From a virus (taxonomy: Duplodnaviria > Caudoviricetes), in IMG/VR virus record IMGVR_UViG_3300035562_000082, positions 53,595 through 117,594 of that record: 64,000 bases of DNA; one strand, 5' to 3'. The notes under the pieces were generated by a model. It worked only from the letters and a program-made list of their open reading frames with translations. It searched no databases and was not told where the DNA came from. Shown here in pieces: positions 2,786-53,679 of this stretch; the stretch's first letter is position 1; every line of letters starts with the position of its first letter. The position numbers were made by a program, and so were the translations under genes.

Positions 2786-4755
2786 TGGCCATCGAGTTCT
2801 ATCCGATTACCGAGTCTCTGCTGCCGGAGAACGCGAACAAAGAGTTCCTGGGTAGCAAGGGCTATTTCCTGTGGTGGATGGCCCAGCAAGGACTTCCAGT
2901 TCCCCCGGCCGTAGTTTTGCCGACGACCGTTTGTCGTGAGTACTGGACGAAGCCCAAGTCGGTAATGCGTGAGGTTCGATCCACGGTCATTCAGATTGCC
3001 GCGTACTTTCAGAAGCAATGGGGGTACATGCCGTTGTTGGCCGTTCGTTCTGGCGCAGCGAATTCGATGCCGGGCATGATGGACACCATCCTGAACGTCG
3101 GACTCGATCCCGCGAACGAAGAGTTCTGGCGCAAGCGCCTGGGCGATAGCTGCTACGACAATTGTCGGCATCGGTTGATCACCATGTACGGCGATGTCGT
3201 CAAGGGCTTGGACCGACAGGAGTTGAAGGACCGCAGTGTGCAGGAGGCGCTGGCGTACTATCAGAAGGCCATGGGTGAATTCCCGGGGTTCAGAGACCAG
3301 CTAGTGGGCGCTGTTGAGGCGGTGTTGAAGTCCTGGAACACTGATCGGGCGAAGTTCTACCGCAGCAAGTACAAGATCTCCGATGATGGTGGAACGGCCG
3401 TTGTTATTCAGGCCATGGTCTTTGGCAACCTGAACAAGAACAGTGGTTCGGGTGTGATGTTCACCCGCAATCCGATTACAGGAGAGAACGAAGCCACGGG
3501 GAATTTTTTGGCCATGGCCCAGGGTGAGGACGTGGTGGGTAATGCGCTCGCGCCGAATTTGAAGGCCATGGGCAAAAGCCATCCGAAGGCCGCGAAGAGT
3601 GTGTTGGCGCTTGCGACCAAGCTTGAACACACGTTGAAGGACATGCAGGACGTGGAGTTCACGGTGCAGGATGGGGAGGTGTGGCTGTTGCAAACGCGCA
3701 CGGGCAAACGCGAAGTCCGGGCAGCGGTGAAGATCGCGTACGACATGGTGCACGAGCAGTTGATCACCGTGCAAGAGGCGGTCAAGCGCGCAAACCCTCG
3801 TCAGTTGGATCTTCTACAGCAACGGGCAGTGGCCCCGACGTTTACTAAAGCCCCGACGTTCATTGGCATGCCCGCGTGTTCGGGCGCGGTGGTGGGTAAA
3901 CCGGTGTTCACCGCACAAGCGGCAATCGATTGCCAGGAACCGTGTATCCTGGTGCGCAAGAACACCGATGTGGATGACATCGAGGGCATGGTCGCTGCGG
4001 CGGGGATCCTGGCCATGACCGGTAGCGAAACCTGTCATCCGGCGATAGTGGCCAGGGGCATGAACAAACCGTGCGTAGTGGCGCTCAAGCAATCGCTGGA
4101 GGTGTTCAATAACGTGGATCGTATTTCGATCGATGGTGCGACCGGTCGGGTGTGGTTGGAGGCCGTGCCCATGGTCGAGGCCGATAACACGGACTTGGTT
4201 CGGGCATTTCAGTCGATGATGATTCGGGCGTTGGATGTTGTTCCGGTGTCCGATACACCGATTGAGGGCGTGAACACCGTGTTTCTTGATCTAGGAGGAC
4301 GGTTGCACGATCAAGGACTGGTATTGAGCATGGTGATGGCCGCGCTGGATGCGGCGGATACCGTGTACGTGGACTGCCGGTGGGCCGATAGGCCGGAGGC
4401 CGAGCGATCGATGATGGACATGTTTTACCACAATTGCAAGTACGAACAGCAGTTTGTGCAGTTCCTGGACGAACATGTACCGGCGGAGAAACTTAGTAAG
4501 CTGGTGTTGCTGACCAATCAAAAGCCGACGAAAATACAGGTAATGAGTTGTGCCACGGGCTTGGCGGACTTGATCATGGCCAATGGCTGGATAGCAATTG
4601 AGCCCGGGCATGAACTTGGGTTCGCGGATCCGCAGGTGTCCAAGGTCTTGTCGTGGCAAAAGGCTGATGGACTACAGATTTTGTACTTGAATCATCATCG
4701 TGCAGATGGCCGATCGGTGTTGAGCCCCGAGCAGGTCATGCAGTTGCTAGGGTAG
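2785..4755 (+). CDS. Pyruvate phosphate dikinase-like protein (ATP-grasp + phospho-His swivel domain, no PEP/pyruvate TIM barrel)
   Basis: GLPVPP, VRSGA-x2-SMPGMMDTILNVG, QAMVFGN, FTRNP-x-TGE, QGEDVV, DVEFT...LLQTR; His domain TCHPAIVARGMNKPCV; unrelated ~190 aa C-terminus. Confidence 0.85.
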   Translation: MAIEFYPITESLLPENANKEFLGSKGYFLWWMAQQGLPVPPAVVLPTTVCREYWTKPKSVMREVRSTVIQIAAYFQKQWGYMPLLAVRSGAANSMPGMMDTILNVGLDPANEEFWRKRLGDSCYDNCRHRLITMYGDVVKGLDRQELKDRSVQEALAYYQKAMGEFPGFRDQLVGAVEAVLKSWNTDRAKFYRSKYKISDDGGTAVVIQAMVFGNLNKNSGSGVMFTRNPITGENEATGNFLAMAQGEDVVGNALAPNLKAMGKSHPKAAKSVLALATKLEHTLKDMQDVEFTVQDGEVWLLQTRTGKREVRAAVKIAYDMVHEQLITVQEAVKRANPRQLDLLQQRAVAPTFTKAPTFIGMPACSGAVVGKPVFTAQAAIDCQEPCILVRKNTDVDDIEGMVAAAGILAMTGSETCHPAIVARGMNKPCVVALKQSLEVFNNVDRISIDGATGRVWLEAVPMVEADNTDLVRAFQSMMIRALDVVPVSDTPIEGVNTVFLDLGGRLHDQGLVLSMVMAALDAADTVYVDCRWADRPEAERSMMDMFYHNCKYEQQFVQFLDEHVPAEKLSKLVLLTNQKPTKIQVMSCATGLADLIMANGWIAIEPGHELGFADPQVSKVLSWQKADGLQILYLNHHRADGRSVLSPEQVMQLLG

Positions 4756-4784
4756 TTGCCTGAATGACATTCGGAAGCTACAAT
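4756..4784 (+). promoter_or_regulatory. sigma70-type promoter TTGCCT-N17-TACAAT
   Basis: Intergenic, correct spacing, upstream of the wHTH gene. Confidence 0.5.
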
Positions 4785-4812
4785 CGGGAGGAGCCGATGC
4801 ACGCGTCGCCGG

Positions 4813-18428: not shown

Positions 18429-21400
18429 GTGGATCCCCGAGTACTGCTAAAGCTTGAAGCCGCGTTGGTTCGGCGGTTACGCGCAAGCTGGAAGCGCGAG
18501 AGCACTCCTGTTTACCTGAAGATCCAACAGGCGATCACCGATTGTGATTGGCCCACGGCCGTCCAGCAGGTGTACAAACTGGACATGACGCACGTGGGGG
18601 ATGAGAACCGCGAGTGGATCCGGCATATGCTGCTGTCATTCGCGGTTTTTGGTGCGAAGATGGCGAACAAGCGCGGACCGTTGTTCTTGAACGCCGGTAC
18701 GTATGATCAACGACTCGATCATATTACGGACATCATTTGTCAGTACTTTGAACATCGAGCAACGGCCTTGGTACAAGCCCGGGCATTGCAATCAATTGCC
18801 GAGGCCGAACGCGAGGCCAAGACCCAGGTGGCGTACAAGTTCGAGGAGGACGAAGCCCGGGATGTCCATGGACGCTGGACAGCCGGGGGTCCGTCGTTGT
18901 GGCACAGTGGGCAGTTTGAAGCCCAGATATCTAAGGTCGGTAAGACCTACGACAACAAGGCCGATATGGCGTTGTTGAGTAAACGTGGAGCGACGCTTGA
19001 GAAGAGGTCGTCTAAAATTCAACAGGATTTTGCTTATCAAGACGATAACCCAGAGGGGTTTGATCAAGAACTAGAGAAACTGAATGACCAGTGGACGGCG
19101 GTAGTGCTTGCTCAAGAAGGGCTCAAGCGTTTCCACGATAAACCAACGGAAACGATGTTCATTGCCCGGGACGGGGACCGACTGTCTGGGTTGGCCTATG
19201 GGTTTGTGCGGGGCGATCAAATGGAACTTGATCGTCTGGCGTCGTTTCAACGGGGGGCTGGGAGTAAGCTGTTGGTGGAGTTCGAACAGAATGCGCGCGA
19301 TCGTGGACTACAGTCGGTCGTATTGCACTCAACGCATTATGCTGAGGGGTTTTACACCGCACACGGTTACACGTCCAAGGGCAAGAACAATGAATATGGG
19401 ATTGTGGAGTTCGAGAAAGATCTGACGAAGACCAAGACCGTGAAGAAGATTGATCCAGAAGAAATTGCGTGCTTGGCAGTGCCGGCAGACTGGAAGCCCA
19501 GGGCTATCAAGGGCGATCTGCCAGGGCATGAGTTCCATGGTAATCAATGGACTCAAGCAGCCGGGCAGTTCAAGTACGATCCAGCGGCCAAAGCTTGGAC
19601 AGGGGGAACGGATGTTCAGCATCAGAGATTACGAGATCTACGAGTCCCCCCTGCATGGGCCAACGTCCGCCTTAACCCAGACGCTGACGCTGCTCTTCAA
19701 GCACTCGGAGTTGATGTTAAAGGCCGTACGCAGTACCTGTATAGTGCGGCCCACAGTGAACAAGCGGCGGCCGAAAAGTTTCAGCGGCTGAAGGACTTCA
19801 ATGCCGTAGCACCGAAGGCCATCAAGCAGGCGTTGGCCGATATGCAGAACAAACAACTGGCGTCGGAGAAGCGAGATGCGGCGGCCGTGGTGTACCTGAT
19901 TGGCAAGACCGGACTGCGTGTGGGATCGGACGCGGAGACCGGGGGTGCGGTCAAGGCCCATGGGGCAACGACGTTGTTGGGCCAGCACGTGACGTTGCTG
20001 GGCGATAAACTGTCGTTGGATTTCGTGGGTAAGAAGGGCGTGCAGATTCACAAGGAGTTGACGGACCCAAAGCTCGCACAGTATTTGAAGGGCAAGGTCA
20101 AGTCCATGGGCGATCGGTTGTTCAACACCACCGACAGTGCTGTACGAACGTATCTCAAGGACATCACGGGCGATCAGTTCAAGGTCAAGGACTTCCGGAC
20201 ATGGCACGGCACGTCCACGGCACTCCAGGAGTTGAAGGACCGACCGGTGCCGAAGACCGCCACGGAGTTCAAACGTGTTGTGTCGGAGGTTGCCAAGGTC
20301 GTGGCCAAGCACTTGGGTAACACTCCCGCTGTGGCGAAGAGCGCGTACATCGATCCGGCGGTTTGGGGTGGTTGGGGCGGGAAGTTCGCGGTGACCAAGC
20401 AGGAGGTTGATCAACCGTTGATAGACGAGTTCCTGGACACCCATCAGTACGATCAAACTGGAAACTGGCGGCTTTTGCCTGATGTTGAGGAAGAGGATCT
20501 GGAAAGCGCAATTAAAGACGACATGGGCAGTGCTGATCTTCAAACGGCGGGCGCACTCAATCCCATGCAGGCCCAAGCTCCGGTACAGAGCCGACGATCG
20601 TTGAGAAGACGCAGGCGACGCAAGGGCGAGACCAGGACGCTGTACGTCCATCGACCGGTGATCAACGGTCAGACGATTGTTGATTGGGCGAAGACCCAGG
20701 GATTTGAAACGTGTTTACCACTGGAGAAAATGCATGTCACAATCGCCTACAGCAAGCAGCCGGTGGACTGGAACGCCATGGGTGATGCTGACACCCGTAA
20801 TCTGCACGTGGATGATCAGGACGACCGCGAGGTCAAACCCTTGGGTAGCGATGGAGCGGTGGTGCTCAAGTTCGTGTCCAAGAAACTCCACGATCGGTGG
20901 AAACACCTGTGTGGCGCGGGAGCATCTTGGGATTACGAGGGTTACCAGCCACACGTTACCATCACTTGGGAAGCCCCGAAAGGACTTGAGTTATCAACGG
21001 TTGAGCCGTACACAGGACCGATTGACCTCGGCCCAGAACAGTTTGAAGAACTTGATGAAGATTGGGGGGACAAGGTAGTTGAGAAGGCCGATGAGACCGG
21101 TCGGTATGTGACGCCGTTTACGTCGTTCGCCGATGAAGGTGAAGGACTGGTGCAGATGGTCAGCAGTTTGAACAGCAGTCGCATGGCCACCTGGGGGTTC
21201 ACGGCCGAGGCCGATCAACTGGGGGTTGGACGTTATCGGTTGACGGCCGTCCTCGATGGGCGTACTAGTGAGTTCTGTCGGATAATCGACGGCCGGGTGT
21301 TTGACGTTGACGACGCACGACGCAAGGTCAATGAGGTACTGGCGGTTCAGGACCCGTCGGATCTTGAGCAGGTGCAGCCATGGCCTGATCAATCGAAGGC

Positions 21401-22955
21401 CGCGATTGCTGAGTACGAAGGTATGTCCGACGATGATCTTGTAGCCCTGGGATTGAACATTCCGCCATTTCACCCAAACGCAGTTTTTGCTGGGACTACG
21501 TTTGTTAGTTATGGGGCGTTAGATGAAATGATCGGGGCTGACTATCATGGTCCCGCGATTTTGATTAAAACCTCTGAGGGTGCAGAGTTTACCATCGGCC
21601 CTAATCACCCGATACTTACACAGTGTGGAATGCGGTTGGCTAATTGCTTGTGTGAAGGCGATTACTTGGTCTACGACACTAGGGTGGAAATGTTTGATTT
21701 TATTTCCAGTGGCCGATCCAATTCTAATTTCAAGAACGTTCCATTCGTTGAGGATGCTTTTGAGTCGTTGTTGCCGATGGGCAAATTGACGCGGGTTGCC
21801 GCTACCACTGACGATTTCCATGGCGACGGGGTATTCTGTGAGGGTGAAATCCAGATTGTAATTCCTGCAAACCGTTTGTTGTTTAAATTTGATTCCTTGG
21901 GCGTTGAGCATTTCCGAGAGTATGGTTTCATTAAACCCAATGCCTCTTTGGCTAATGTATCTACTGATGGCTCTGGCTACCCTGACATCGAGCCCATCTA
22001 TTTGTCCGCGCCGGGCAGCGTGGGCAGCAGATTGGCGGGTGTGTTTAGACTCCATCGAGTAGTGAGTGTAACGCGAACACAATATAAAGGTAAAGCATTT
22101 GATGCTACAACTGCCTCTGGTGTTTACAACTGTGACGGATTTGTAGTAAGTAACTGTCGTACGATGTGCGAAATGGTGGACGCCGATGAGGGTGAGCCCG
22201 AGGAGTTGGCGGTGACCGGCCCGTTGGACAAACAGCAGTCAACGGCCGAGGATTTTGCGGCCGTGGGGGTAGAGGTCACGGACGATCAGCTTGCGTATTG
22301 GAATGACGCTGTGGGGTTAGATCCTCAAAAGGCGTTGGAAACGATGTTCGCGGGTGATGTAGAGGCGTTGACCGCCAAGCTTGATGAAGGACAGGATCCA
22401 ATTGATGTAGACGAGGGTGGGAGTATCAGCTTTGTGGCCGCAGGCGATCTCGGAGACGGTACGTACGATCTTCAGAGTGTGTTCGATCCGTTTACCGGCA
22501 CGTTGTATTTGACCGACGCGGATTTCACGACCACCGATCCTCAGGTGGTGGCGGAGTTCATCAGCCGGGTGTTCGACGGCATGATCGACACCGGGATGTC
22601 CGCTGGGGCAACGGCCTTGGCCATTGACGTGGGGGATTCCGCGTATGAGTACGCGAAGATGGGTTTCAGACCCGATCCTGGTGATTGGGAGGACATACGG
22701 GGTAACGCCATGGACGCCCTGCAAAGCGGGGATCTCCAAGAGGTGTTCGACAGCCTGGACGATGATCAAAAGAATCAGGTGTTGAATACCTTGAACAACC
22801 CGGACGAACATGCGGTGCAGGATCTGGCGAACTTGCCGATTGAATTTCAAGGGCAGTCCGTGGGAGAATTGATATTGCAATCGGTGTCCGGGCAGTTCAC
22901 GTTGGATCTGACGGACGATGATGCGGTTGAGCAGGCAAAGAGCTATTTTGAGTGA
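18429..22955 (+). CDS. MuF (SPP1 gp7-like) head morphogenesis polyprotein: GNAT, topoisomerase IB, Acb1-like 2H phosphodiesterase, intein-split MuF, acidic C-terminal domain
   Basis: GNAT QRGAGSKLL...AEGFYTAHGY; TopIB GRTQYLY, GLRVG, KDFRTW, HLGNTPAVAKSAYIDP; 2H HVTIAYS and HVTITW; MuF LDGRTSEFC...PPFHPN/CRT. Confidence 0.88.
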   Translation: MDPRVLLKLEAALVRRLRASWKRESTPVYLKIQQAITDCDWPTAVQQVYKLDMTHVGDENREWIRHMLLSFAVFGAKMANKRGPLFLNAGTYDQRLDHITDIICQYFEHRATALVQARALQSIAEAEREAKTQVAYKFEEDEARDVHGRWTAGGPSLWHSGQFEAQISKVGKTYDNKADMALLSKRGATLEKRSSKIQQDFAYQDDNPEGFDQELEKLNDQWTAVVLAQEGLKRFHDKPTETMFIARDGDRLSGLAYGFVRGDQMELDRLASFQRGAGSKLLVEFEQNARDRGLQSVVLHSTHYAEGFYTAHGYTSKGKNNEYGIVEFEKDLTKTKTVKKIDPEEIACLAVPADWKPRAIKGDLPGHEFHGNQWTQAAGQFKYDPAAKAWTGGTDVQHQRLRDLRVPPAWANVRLNPDADAALQALGVDVKGRTQYLYSAAHSEQAAAEKFQRLKDFNAVAPKAIKQALADMQNKQLASEKRDAAAVVYLIGKTGLRVGSDAETGGAVKAHGATTLLGQHVTLLGDKLSLDFVGKKGVQIHKELTDPKLAQYLKGKVKSMGDRLFNTTDSAVRTYLKDITGDQFKVKDFRTWHGTSTALQELKDRPVPKTATEFKRVVSEVAKVVAKHLGNTPAVAKSAYIDPAVWGGWGGKFAVTKQEVDQPLIDEFLDTHQYDQTGNWRLLPDVEEEDLESAIKDDMGSADLQTAGALNPMQAQAPVQSRRSLRRRRRRKGETRTLYVHRPVINGQTIVDWAKTQGFETCLPLEKMHVTIAYSKQPVDWNAMGDADTRNLHVDDQDDREVKPLGSDGAVVLKFVSKKLHDRWKHLCGAGASWDYEGYQPHVTITWEAPKGLELSTVEPYTGPIDLGPEQFEELDEDWGDKVVEKADETGRYVTPFTSFADEGEGLVQMVSSLNSSRMATWGFTAEADQLGVGRYRLTAVLDGRTSEFCRIIDGRVFDVDDARRKVNEVLAVQDPSDLEQVQPWPDQSKAAIAEYEGMSDDDLVALGLNIPPFHPNAVFAGTTFVSYGALDEMIGADYHGPAILIKTSEGAEFTIGPNHPILTQCGMRLANCLCEGDYLVYDTRVEMFDFISSGRSNSNFKNVPFVEDAFESLLPMGKLTRVAATTDDFHGDGVFCEGEIQIVIPANRLLFKFDSLGVEHFREYGFIKPNASLANVSTDGSGYPDIEPIYLSAPGSVGSRLAGVFRLHRVVSVTRTQYKGKAFDATTASGVYNCDGFVVSNCRTMCEMVDADEGEPEELAVTGPLDKQQSTAEDFAAVGVEVTDDQLAYWNDAVGLDPQKALETMFAGDVEALTAKLDEGQDPIDVDEGGSISFVAAGDLGDGTYDLQSVFDPFTGTLYLTDADFTTTDPQVVAEFISRVFDGMIDTGMSAGATALAIDVGDSAYEYAKMGFRPDPGDWEDIRGNAMDALQSGDLQEVFDSLDDDQKNQVLNTLNNPDEHAVQDLANLPIEFQGQSVGELILQSVSGQFTLDLTDDDAVEQAKSYFE
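21480..22154 (+). mobile_element. Intein (225 aa, Ala1, ends Ser-Asn, Cys+1) inserted in the MuF HPN|CR motif
   Basis: Removing AVFAGT...FVVSN restores PPFHPNCRT; block B TIGPNHPILT; block F/G YKGKAFDATT...VVSN/C; AT-richer than flanks. Confidence 0.88.
21519..22082 (-). CDS. DUF559/Vsr-like PD-(D/E)XK endonuclease nested antisense within the intein
   Basis: ETILSEMLNAQGIKFKQQ...YNLDF...VAMEIVSG...RLKSILNEWNVLEI follows the E...Q...Y-x-x-DF...A-x-E...W-x-V pattern; ORF lies wholly inside the intein; alternative ATG at 22055. Confidence 0.65.
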   Translation of the reverse strand: MCSRYTHYSMESKHTRQSAAHAARRGQIDGLDVRVARAISRYISQRGIGFNETILSEMLNAQGIKFKQQTVCRNYNLDFTLTEYPVAMEIVSGSGNPRQFAHRQQRLKSILNEWNVLEIRIGSATGNKIKHFHPSVVDQVIAFTQAISQPHSTLCKYRVIRADGKLCTLRGFNQNRGTMIVSPDHFI

Positions 22956-22958
22956 TGG

Positions 22959-23261
22959 ATGGATCAGTTGAGGCCCGTGGACATTGACGTTGGAAAGCGC
23001 CGTACGTGGTCGATCGAGGGCGTGACGGTTCCACTGACGTTGGTGGGCGGGTTGTTGCTGCAAACGGCGTTTTTTGCTTTCTGGCTTAGTGGATTGTCCT
23101 CGGATGTCAAGACCTTGACCAAGAACCAAGATAAGGCGGATGTGCTGGTGTATAAACAATCGGATGCCACAAAGGACCTTGCGGTCAGGGATCAACGCCT
23201 TACAGACCTGGAGCGTCGGGTTCGGGACCTGGAGCAGATTGCGGATGGGAGAAAGCACTGA
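22959..23261 (+). CDS. Single-TM membrane protein with coiled coil (holin/antiholin-like)
   Basis: Hydrophobic LTLVGGLLLQTAFFAFWLSGL followed by a coiled coil; precedes a spanin pair. Confidence 0.55.
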   Translation: MDQLRPVDIDVGKRRTWSIEGVTVPLTLVGGLLLQTAFFAFWLSGLSSDVKTLTKNQDKADVLVYKQSDATKDLAVRDQRLTDLERRVRDLEQIADGRKH

Positions 23262-53241: not shown

Positions 53242-53679
53242 ATGCCGGGTAACACCGACCCGATCTTTTCACGCGTAGCGGATGTTTCTAACAACGCCGG
53301 CACCGGCATGAATCAGCCAATTACGTCCGCTGCTAATGATTTTACTGGCGCTGGGGCAAATAATTCGTTGGTGTTCACCGCCGACGCCACCAATGGGGGG
53401 TTCATTCAACGATTGAGGTTCAAGGCCGCCGGTACTAACGTGGCGTCCGTTGCGCGTATTTTTATCAACAACGGATCGACTCACACTACAGCCGCGAATA
53501 ACACGTTTTATGGTGAGATCGGTCTGCCGGCTACGACCTCAAGTGCTACGGGGGTAACAGGCTCGGATATTGATTACCCGTTGAACATAGCGTTGAACGC
53601 GGGATTCACGATCTACGTTGGACTTGGAACAACGGTTGCCGCTGGTTGGGTGATTACTCCAGTGGCCGGAAAGTATTGA
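53242..53679 (+). CDS. Tail accessory structural protein
   Basis: Beta-rich 145 aa protein in the fibre cluster. Confidence 0.6.
   Translation: MPGNTDPIFSRVADVSNNAGTGMNQPITSAANDFTGAGANNSLVFTADATNGGFIQRLRFKAAGTNVASVARIFINNGSTHTTAANNTFYGEIGLPATTSSATGVTGSDIDYPLNIALNAGFTIYVGLGTTVAAGWVITPVAGKY

Follow-up and report, generated by a model that had tools for sequence, protein, structure and literature searches.

Inteins are usually described as single polypeptides that carry out both splicing and homing. The locus studied here raises the question of where the homing function resides when the polypeptide appears to hold none. It lies in a 64,000-nucleotide stretch of phage DNA (hereafter the window; positions 53,595 to 117,594 of the IMG/VR record IMGVR_UViG_3300035562_000082), in which a gene for a MuF-type head protein is interrupted by a 225-amino-acid intein. 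An earlier note, made from the sequence of the window, had proposed that the middle of this intein is the antisense of a nuclease gene, so that one segment would code on both strands. The openness of the antisense frame in relatives, the substitution patterns, the profile matches and the predicted folds all support such dual coding. The antisense frame is open, conserved and under purifying selection, and it encodes a nuclease fold. Based on these results, we read the insert with good confidence as a contiguous MuF intein whose interior is a registered antisense gene for a nuclease of the Vsr/DUF559 fold, most likely the homing endonuclease of the element.

The intein and the reading frame opposite it

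The insert and the parts of its two readings are placed as follows (ORF, open reading frame; AF2, AlphaFold2).

21480..22154, + strand: intein, 225 amino acids, Ala1 to Asn225, between HPN and CR of the MuF HPNCRC-type motif
21480..21689, + strand: Hint N-lobe, intein residues 1-70, with block A (AVFAG...) and block B (GPNHPILT, 21597-21620)
21690..22037, + strand: sense "linker", intein residues 71-186, open, no confident fold predicted
22038..22154, + strand: Hint C-lobe, intein residues 187-225, with blocks F and G (KAFDATT ... GFVVSN)
21519-22082, - strand: longest antisense ORF, 187 amino acids, TTG start at 22082, wholly inside the intein
21519..22055, - strand: candidate antisense homing-endonuclease gene, short form, ATG at 22055-22053, 178 amino acids, stop at 21521-21519
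21948..22055, - strand: N-terminal Arg-rich helical region, residues 1-36 of 178, helices at 3-16 and 22-35 (AF2)
21582..21947, - strand: Vsr/DUF559-like nuclease core, residues 37-158 of 178, with invariant E, Q, Y-N-x-D and A-x-E
21579..21689, both strands: overlap in which both products are predicted to be folded, about 37 codons, intein residues 34-70

The insert is flanked by FHPN upstream and CRTMC downstream; it starts with AVFAG, contains GPNHPILT and ends with GFVVSN. The HPN/C junction, Ala1 and the VVSN/C end are common to all eight close metagenomic relatives, and the sense readings of the window and its relatives do not vary in blocks B (GPNHPxxT), F and G. Searches with the intein (tblastn) find MuF inteins, among which that of Rhodococcus phage REQ3 is 38% identical across all 225 residues. 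In Pfam, the sense intein gave a weak match to Intein_splicing (E 0.021) and none to LAGLIDADG or HNH, in agreement with the earlier note, which had seen no such domain in frame. The same note had called the centre of the intein featureless, and the AF2 model of the sense reading has no confident structure at residues 73-186: its predicted local distance difference test score (pLDDT) is 76-85 at residues ~21-70, strands are predicted at 189-224 with values up to 91, and it falls below 50 at residues 73-87, 108-124 and 128-186. The best matches of this model in the PDB are inteins throughout (1am2 at E 6.3e-4, RadA, RecA). Splice-junction residues, splicing blocks and a predicted Hint fold in an in-frame insert all point to an intein, and the conserved blocks together with the essential head-protein host suggest that it splices.

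On the opposite strand, the ORF list bears out the coordinates given earlier, with a 187-codon reverse ORF wholly inside the 225-residue intein at HPN/CR; its start is likely the ATG at 22055. Position 21519 is a sense codon position 1, so that sense and antisense codons pair one to one as reverse complements, with antisense residue i opposite intein residue 202-i (187-residue numbering). By this register, the sense DFHGDG (intein 112-117) is exactly the complement of the antisense PVAMEI (85-90), as had been noticed. Within the 675 nucleotides, the sense frame has no stop, the registered antisense frame has one (the ORF's own), and the remaining four frames have 9-29. The extension of the overlap into block B was also correctly seen, the last predicted strand of the nuclease, YRVIR, being the complement of PNHPI.

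Openness and distribution of the antisense frame

Searches with either reading (tblastn) recovered MuF inteins in Rhodococcus phage REQ3, Cronobacter phage ES2, Kagunavirus and Aaphi23, and further ones in Vibrio, Pseudomonas, Gordonia and Edwardsiella phages. The antisense frame is open in 19/19 related loci examined, including phages of 41-49% GC, with chance probabilities from 1e-3 to ~1e-9, and the codon register is the same in every locus. In all ten named phages, a set that includes phages of 41-45% GC, antisense-stop codons make up 0.2-3.7% of the host gene, and the intein is covered by a single run of 208-351 codons without such a stop. For example, Vibrio phage vB_VaM_H2 (45% GC) has 23 antisense-stop codons in 627 and none in 290 consecutive codons, its other runs being of 34 codons at most; using the frequency outside the run, such openness would arise by chance with a probability of about 1e-9. 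All eight metagenomic relatives (intein identity 35-52%) retain the antisense ORF, with P values of 1e-3 and 1e-5 in the two AT-richest. An intein search of IMG/VR gave no confirmed relative.

The antisense nuclease of ES2 matches 121 deposited phage genomes, of which 62 are Salmonella phages; Salmonella Jerseyvirus-like, Klebsiella, Pseudomonas and Acinetobacter phages are represented. The matches listed are all found under genes for head morphogenesis or minor capsid proteins, and not one of them carries a nuclease annotation. No free-standing homologue was recognised, the matching database proteins having been called at contig ends or in host genes split by the gene caller. Among the inteins compared with that of the window, identity is 46-52%, with flanking exteins that range from 72% identical to unalignable; this decoupling of intein and extein similarity is consistent with horizontal spread of the element.

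Selection on the two strands

In exteins and splicing blocks, substitutions fall chiefly at sense position 3, and in the middle of the intein they shift to sense position 1. Two Gordonia phages, Angelicage and Vivi2, show this in comparison. Their N-exteins differ 2/1/45 times at sense codon positions 1/2/3, the middle of their inteins 55/12/34 times, and in that middle 63 amino-acid changes are counted in the sense reading vs 36 in the antisense reading. The codon columns of nine short and intermediate forms, the window included, show how this selection is distributed along the element. In total, 21 columns are invariant in the antisense reading only. Blocks A, F and G hold 18 sense-only invariant columns and no antisense-only ones, and residues 193-225 hold 12 sense-only and no antisense-only columns. 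In the N-lobe, the sense-only invariants are A1, V2, G5, F8, Y11, G12, G40-P44 and T47. Residues 141-192 show the reverse, with 10 antisense-only and no sense-only columns, an identity of 0.49 in antisense vs 0.27 in sense, and differences that peak at sense position 1. Between these regions, at residues 36-140, both readings are constrained. Individual codons illustrate the pattern: sense residue 113 is F or L and always stands opposite an antisense Glu, and sense residue 124 is I or V and always opposite an antisense Asp. Substitutions between the window and REQ3 or the metagenomic loci L011 and L013 flip in the same way. The homologues behave as the earlier note had anticipated, with the reverse frame open in every locus and residues 141-192 of the intein better conserved in antisense. 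That the middle of the sense reading might itself hold an endonuclease or DNA-binding domain in frame was considered; this substitution pattern and the low pLDDT rule it out.

The antisense product

The 178-residue antisense product has a pI of 10.1 and is modelled by AF2 with a pLDDT of 87 and a predicted template modelling score of 0.79. Foldseek places Vsr first for this model (1cw0, E 3.6e-4), followed by 1vsr and I-Bth0305I, and the predicted model has the alpha/beta nuclease fold of the Vsr type; structure prediction, which the earlier note had named as a check, comes out in its favour. Residues E, Q, Y-N-x-D and A-x-E do not vary among 10 sequences and hardly vary among 37, and by eye this set agrees with the DUF559 pattern. 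Searched as a profile, the 37 members give matches to the DUF559-like structure 3HRL (E 4e-4) and to a tandem helix-turn-helix (HTH) protein. With individual relatives, one antisense ORF passes the Pfam DUF559 cut-off of 20.6 bits (21.3 bits), six match REase_MTES_1575 at 16.7-26.4 bits, all below the cut-off of 38.2, and HTH matches above the Pfam cut-offs are found to HTH_7 (36.5 bits), HTH_38 (31.4) and HTH_58 (38.7).

Ahead of the core, the Arg-rich N-terminal region contributes the antisense-only invariants A20, A23, R24, R25, G26, R37, A38 and R41 (187-residue numbering), and is a candidate for the DNA-binding part. Towards the other end, the antisense pLDDT stays high to residue ~160 of 178, that is, into the overlap with the folded sense residues 21-70.

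Splicing class of the intein

Class 3 inteins reportedly carry a WCT triad, attributed to work by Tori and colleagues in 2010, consisting of Trp B:12, Cys F:4 and Thr G:5. The window's intein lacks it: an Ile/Val stands two residues past the block B His, Asp is at F:4 (AFDAT), and Val is in block G (VVSN). Neither does it have the Cys, Ser or Thr at position 1 that defines class 1, as Ala1 is found in the window and in all eight close relatives. Class 2 (KlbA-like) is defined by Ala1 and a Cys+1 nucleophile without a block F Cys; Ala1 and Cys+1 are present here, and the Cys at F:4 is absent. Ala1 and the missing WCT triad make a class 2-like mechanism probable, in which Cys+1 would attack directly, as judged from these motifs. 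C120 was considered as a class 3-type nucleophile and ruled out, being missing from REQ3 and several long forms.

Short and long forms

In most relatives, the antisense product is of ~280-310 residues and has one or two HTH domains. The window, REQ3, L011 and the loci L015-L020 are of a short type, with an intein of ~221-226 residues and a nuclease of ~170-180 residues without HTH; one HTH is retained in L021 and L022. The short forms retain an AAHAARRG helix. A Met lies 5-9 residues ahead of it in 6/7 loci, and also in REQ3 and L011; in L020, the nearest ATG is 18 residues upstream of the helix. GGAGG-type Shine-Dalgarno sequences with proper spacing precede the ORF in the short forms L015, L016 and L018, and also in Aaphi23 and vB_Vp_PvVp04.

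In long forms (L004, L005, L010, L002, L009), the nuclease starts at an ATG formed by the complement of the block F His codon. The GGAGG-type site of Aaphi23 and vB_Vp_PvVp04 is the complement of the next block F codons, and the others have a weaker GGAG or GAGAT. These long forms thus use a single conserved stretch twice, for splicing in the sense reading and for the start of translation in the antisense reading.

Host gene and genomic setting

The source record is a 117.6-kb virus, judged complete, of an uncultivated soil phage. A look-up of sequencing runs gave a single DNA run, from a soil metagenome that is probably the source, and no RNA run. The gene that carries the intein and its other features are listed here.

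18429..22955, + strand: host gene, 1508-residue polyvalent MuF-type head protein carrying the intein (ORF list; Pfam and PHROG matches)
about 20634-21071, + strand: Acb1 anti-CBASS phosphodiesterase domain (Pfam E 1.9e-38; CBASS, cyclic oligonucleotide-based antiphage signalling system)
19638-20651, - strand: further registered antisense ORF under the host gene, 337 amino acids (ORF list)
22317-23258, - strand: further registered antisense ORF under the host gene, 313 amino acids (ORF list)

Regions of the host protein match a GNAT acetyltransferase, topoisomerase IB (Topoisom_I, E 6e-26), Acb1 and a MuF/minor-head-protein domain (Phage_Mu_F, E 7e-4) in Pfam and PHROGs, several "minor head protein" PHROGs being among the matches. 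A 1484-residue protein with Acb1 and NUDIX adjoins a long-form antisense nuclease in the relative L012.

Weighing the alternatives

Several points weigh against reading the antisense ORF as an active homing endonuclease gene. The resemblance to DUF559 and Vsr that the earlier note had seen is real and agrees with the predicted fold, but the window's own Pfam score for DUF559 (15.2 bits, E 0.02, against a cut-off of 20.6 bits) is not significant alone. Where the consensus of the family at large, "EVxGGxxH", has its His, the short forms have Asn. The window copy lacks the HTH domains of its relatives, which leaves site-specific binding unexplained. The AF2 alignments had 37 rows for the antisense and 9 for the sense reading, so the contrast in confidence between the two is indicative and not strictly like for like. 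Both strands are open, as stop counts confirm, but the DNA is AT-rich, as the note had put it, only relative to its flanks (46-48% vs 54-57% GC); TTA, CTA and TCA make up 1% of the codons of the host gene, and given the phage's synonymous usage, the probability of meeting no antisense stop under 188 codons is ~0.07. As the phage seldom uses these codons, an open antisense frame carries little weight when only this window is considered. Neither the TTG nor the ATG of the window's antisense ORF is preceded by a Shine-Dalgarno sequence (the note, too, had seen no clear ribosome-binding site), although many other genes of the window likewise have no obvious one. Scans for sigma-70 promoters and terminators gave no more than the shuffled expectation, with no promoter-like site near the ORF. 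Finally, no bench test of any member of the antisense-nuclease family was found, either in the preprint discussed below or elsewhere in the literature.

Taken to the extreme, the weakness of openness in this phage would make the antisense ORF a non-coding shadow of codon bias that looks like a nuclease by chance. The two further registered antisense ORFs of 337 and 313 residues, together with the 1% of TTA, CTA and TCA codons, do mean that in this phage an open antisense frame alone is no proof of a gene, the figure of ~0.07 speaks the same language, and antisense translations of homologous genes are always somewhat alike. This explanation is contradicted by the openness in relatives, the substitution patterns, the antisense-only columns and the fold match, and we find it hardly credible. 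A less drastic alternative accepts that the gene is real in the family and holds that the HTH-less short copy is decaying and inactive, the intein being inherited vertically as a de facto mini-intein. The lost HTH domains, the missing Shine-Dalgarno sequence and promoter, and the modest improbability of openness in the window would all fit such a relic, and so would the comparison with the closest extein relative, L015, where 72% identity in the extein and 52% in the intein are compatible with vertical descent under relaxed constraint. Yet the short form is a clade, in which the ORF has been kept in the window, REQ3, L011 and L015-L020, in most cases with an ATG. Every invariant acidic residue is retained in all short forms, conservation across them is higher in antisense than in sense, and three of them have a strong Shine-Dalgarno sequence, a signal that many genes of the window do without in any case. 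We therefore regard a relic as unlikely.

It may also be asked whether an expressed nuclease could serve the phage in another way, by degrading host or competitor DNA or excluding co-infecting phages, and not by homing into MuF genes. The host gene encodes a polyvalent conflict protein with Acb1, the short form lacks the HTH expected for recognition of a long site, and the present data do not reveal the cleavage site, all of which would suit such a domesticated enzyme. Against it, the gene has been met only inside inteins inserted at one and the same MuF site, both in the 121 phage records (among the matches listed) and in all loci examined, and never free-standing, and the similarity of inteins is decoupled from that of exteins, as homing predicts. 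This makes domestication quite improbable, and a homing endonuclease gene remains the reading that we prefer.

Proposed mechanism

Under the preferred reading of an antisense homing endonuclease, we infer expression, cleavage, homing and the splicing class as parts of the following sequence of events. The precursor of the late head protein would be translated straight across the complement of the nuclease gene. Its Hint lobes (residues ~1-70 and 187-225) would then fold, excise the insert and rejoin HPN to CR. The stretch of ~115 residues between the lobes would be a passenger linker whose sequence is set by the antisense gene and which must only lack stops. From the antisense strand, a 178-residue basic protein would be made, with three Arg-rich helices and a nuclease core, which would cut intein-less MuF alleles near the HPN/CR codons in a co-infecting phage; repair would copy the intein and the nuclease gene together. 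The register observed is the one that would need the fewest compromises, since each gene has to avoid only TTA, CTA and TCA. Splicing and nuclease being on opposite strands, two transcripts would be needed, and the nuclease could be timed apart from the late structural gene.

A bolder proposal, to which we give slightly less than even weight, is that the short form is an autonomous minimal Vsr-like homing endonuclease (~170-180 residues) whose site is read by the Arg-rich three-helix N-terminus, with an overlap that codes for folded parts of both proteins. If this is so, the element would be a clear natural example of two structured functional domains encoded by co-adapted sense and antisense readings.

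Relation to known systems

The concept is already present in a 2025 preprint, and the earlier note's belief that no such case had been described does not stand. Gosselin, Arsenault and Gogarten (bioRxiv 10.1101/2025.01.02.630785) describe VSR-like endonucleases encoded antisense to full inteins in minor capsid proteins of actinophages, and their dataset includes the 225-residue REQ3 intein, our closest named relative, which is listed as class 3. The systems share a contiguous intein, a nuclease ORF antisense inside it and a Vsr-like predicted fold, and the window differs in its soil phage, its 1508-residue polyvalent host, its HTH-less short form and its lack of the WCT triad. The codon register, HTH-less site recognition and the dual-folded overlap were not found in the searched text of the preprint, and the layout is found here also in Proteobacteria phages, beyond its actinophage survey. 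The locus adds a soil-phage member in a polyvalent host protein, an HTH-less short clade, the block B overlap and a wider host range to an existing concept; a literature search found no further paper on the antisense Vsr-like layout. With 121 deposited phage genomes matched, the distribution extends well beyond actinophages. According to the preprint, which refers to Gorbalenya 1998 and Gogarten 2002, antisense LAGLIDADG endonucleases are known in the inteins of Synechocystis DnaX and a Chloroflexus SpoVR-like protein. These likewise place an endonuclease opposite a full intein, and differ in the nuclease family and in their cellular hosts.

Relative to canonical inteins such as PI-SceI and PI-PfuI, the endonuclease module interrupts Hint at the same topological place and would move as a unit. 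In canonical inteins, however, the LAGLIDADG or HNH domain is in frame, whereas the nuclease of the window lies outside the intein polypeptide and needs its own transcript and start. Its identity to I-Bth0305I (group I intron of a Bacillus phage, EDxHD family, PDB 3R3P) and to E. coli Vsr (1CW0, 1VSR) is 14-18%; the EDxHD motif was not recognised in the window nuclease, whose conserved set resembles the DUF559/REase_MTES_1575 pattern more closely.

The first link between Vsr-like homing endonucleases and split inteins was made by Dassa et al. 2009 (PMC2677866), who described "fractured genes", in which a free-standing gene of this kind lies between the intein halves, and who proposed a route by which free-standing endonuclease genes enter inteins. 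Both systems combine a Vsr-like endonuclease with an intein in phage-like DNA. In fractured genes, the intein is in two genes and the endonuclease gene is separate and non-overlapping, whereas in the window ~530 nucleotides code on both strands. The locus is not a fractured gene, for one uninterrupted 1508-codon ORF runs through the nuclease gene; with no stop in the sense frame, a single precursor would be made, unlike in a fractured gene. The layout illustrates how a mini-intein can be colonised by a free-standing endonuclease gene and yet remain unbroken, and offers a natural example of long registered sense/antisense dual coding with selection on both strands. It also has consequences for annotation: these antisense nuclease genes are unannotated, a real gene that gene callers and annotators miss, and the "featureless" middle of such an intein should not be taken as a degenerate endonuclease domain.

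Gene 15 of Angelicage (L006:1543-2400, - strand) holds a MuF intein with a registered antisense ORF that matches HTH_58 and REase_MTES_1575. In the preprint, Angelicage, Affeca and Keitabear are clustered with an endonuclease VII-like homing endonuclease in frame 3; the Angelicage intein seen here has the antisense type of substitution pattern, and may or may not be the frame-3 intein of the preprint.

Two metagenomic loci gave further observations on the continuity of the sense frame. The closest antisense relative, on L011 (P0032, 53% identity), has one sense stop (L011:4500-4537) seven codons from the contig end, probably an assembly-end error at ~3x coverage and not a sign of a split intein. 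On the GC-rich contig L013 (3722-5302, - strand; 3959-4807, + strand), a related Cys1 intein sits at a different junction, GPQ/C ... AN/CGW, and its antisense nuclease, 38% identical to that of the window over 63% of it, has an additional N-terminal CxxC...CxxC and HTH. We considered L013 as a fractured gene and ruled this out, as a continuous 526-residue sense ORF, which the gene caller had broken into pieces, spans the nuclease gene.

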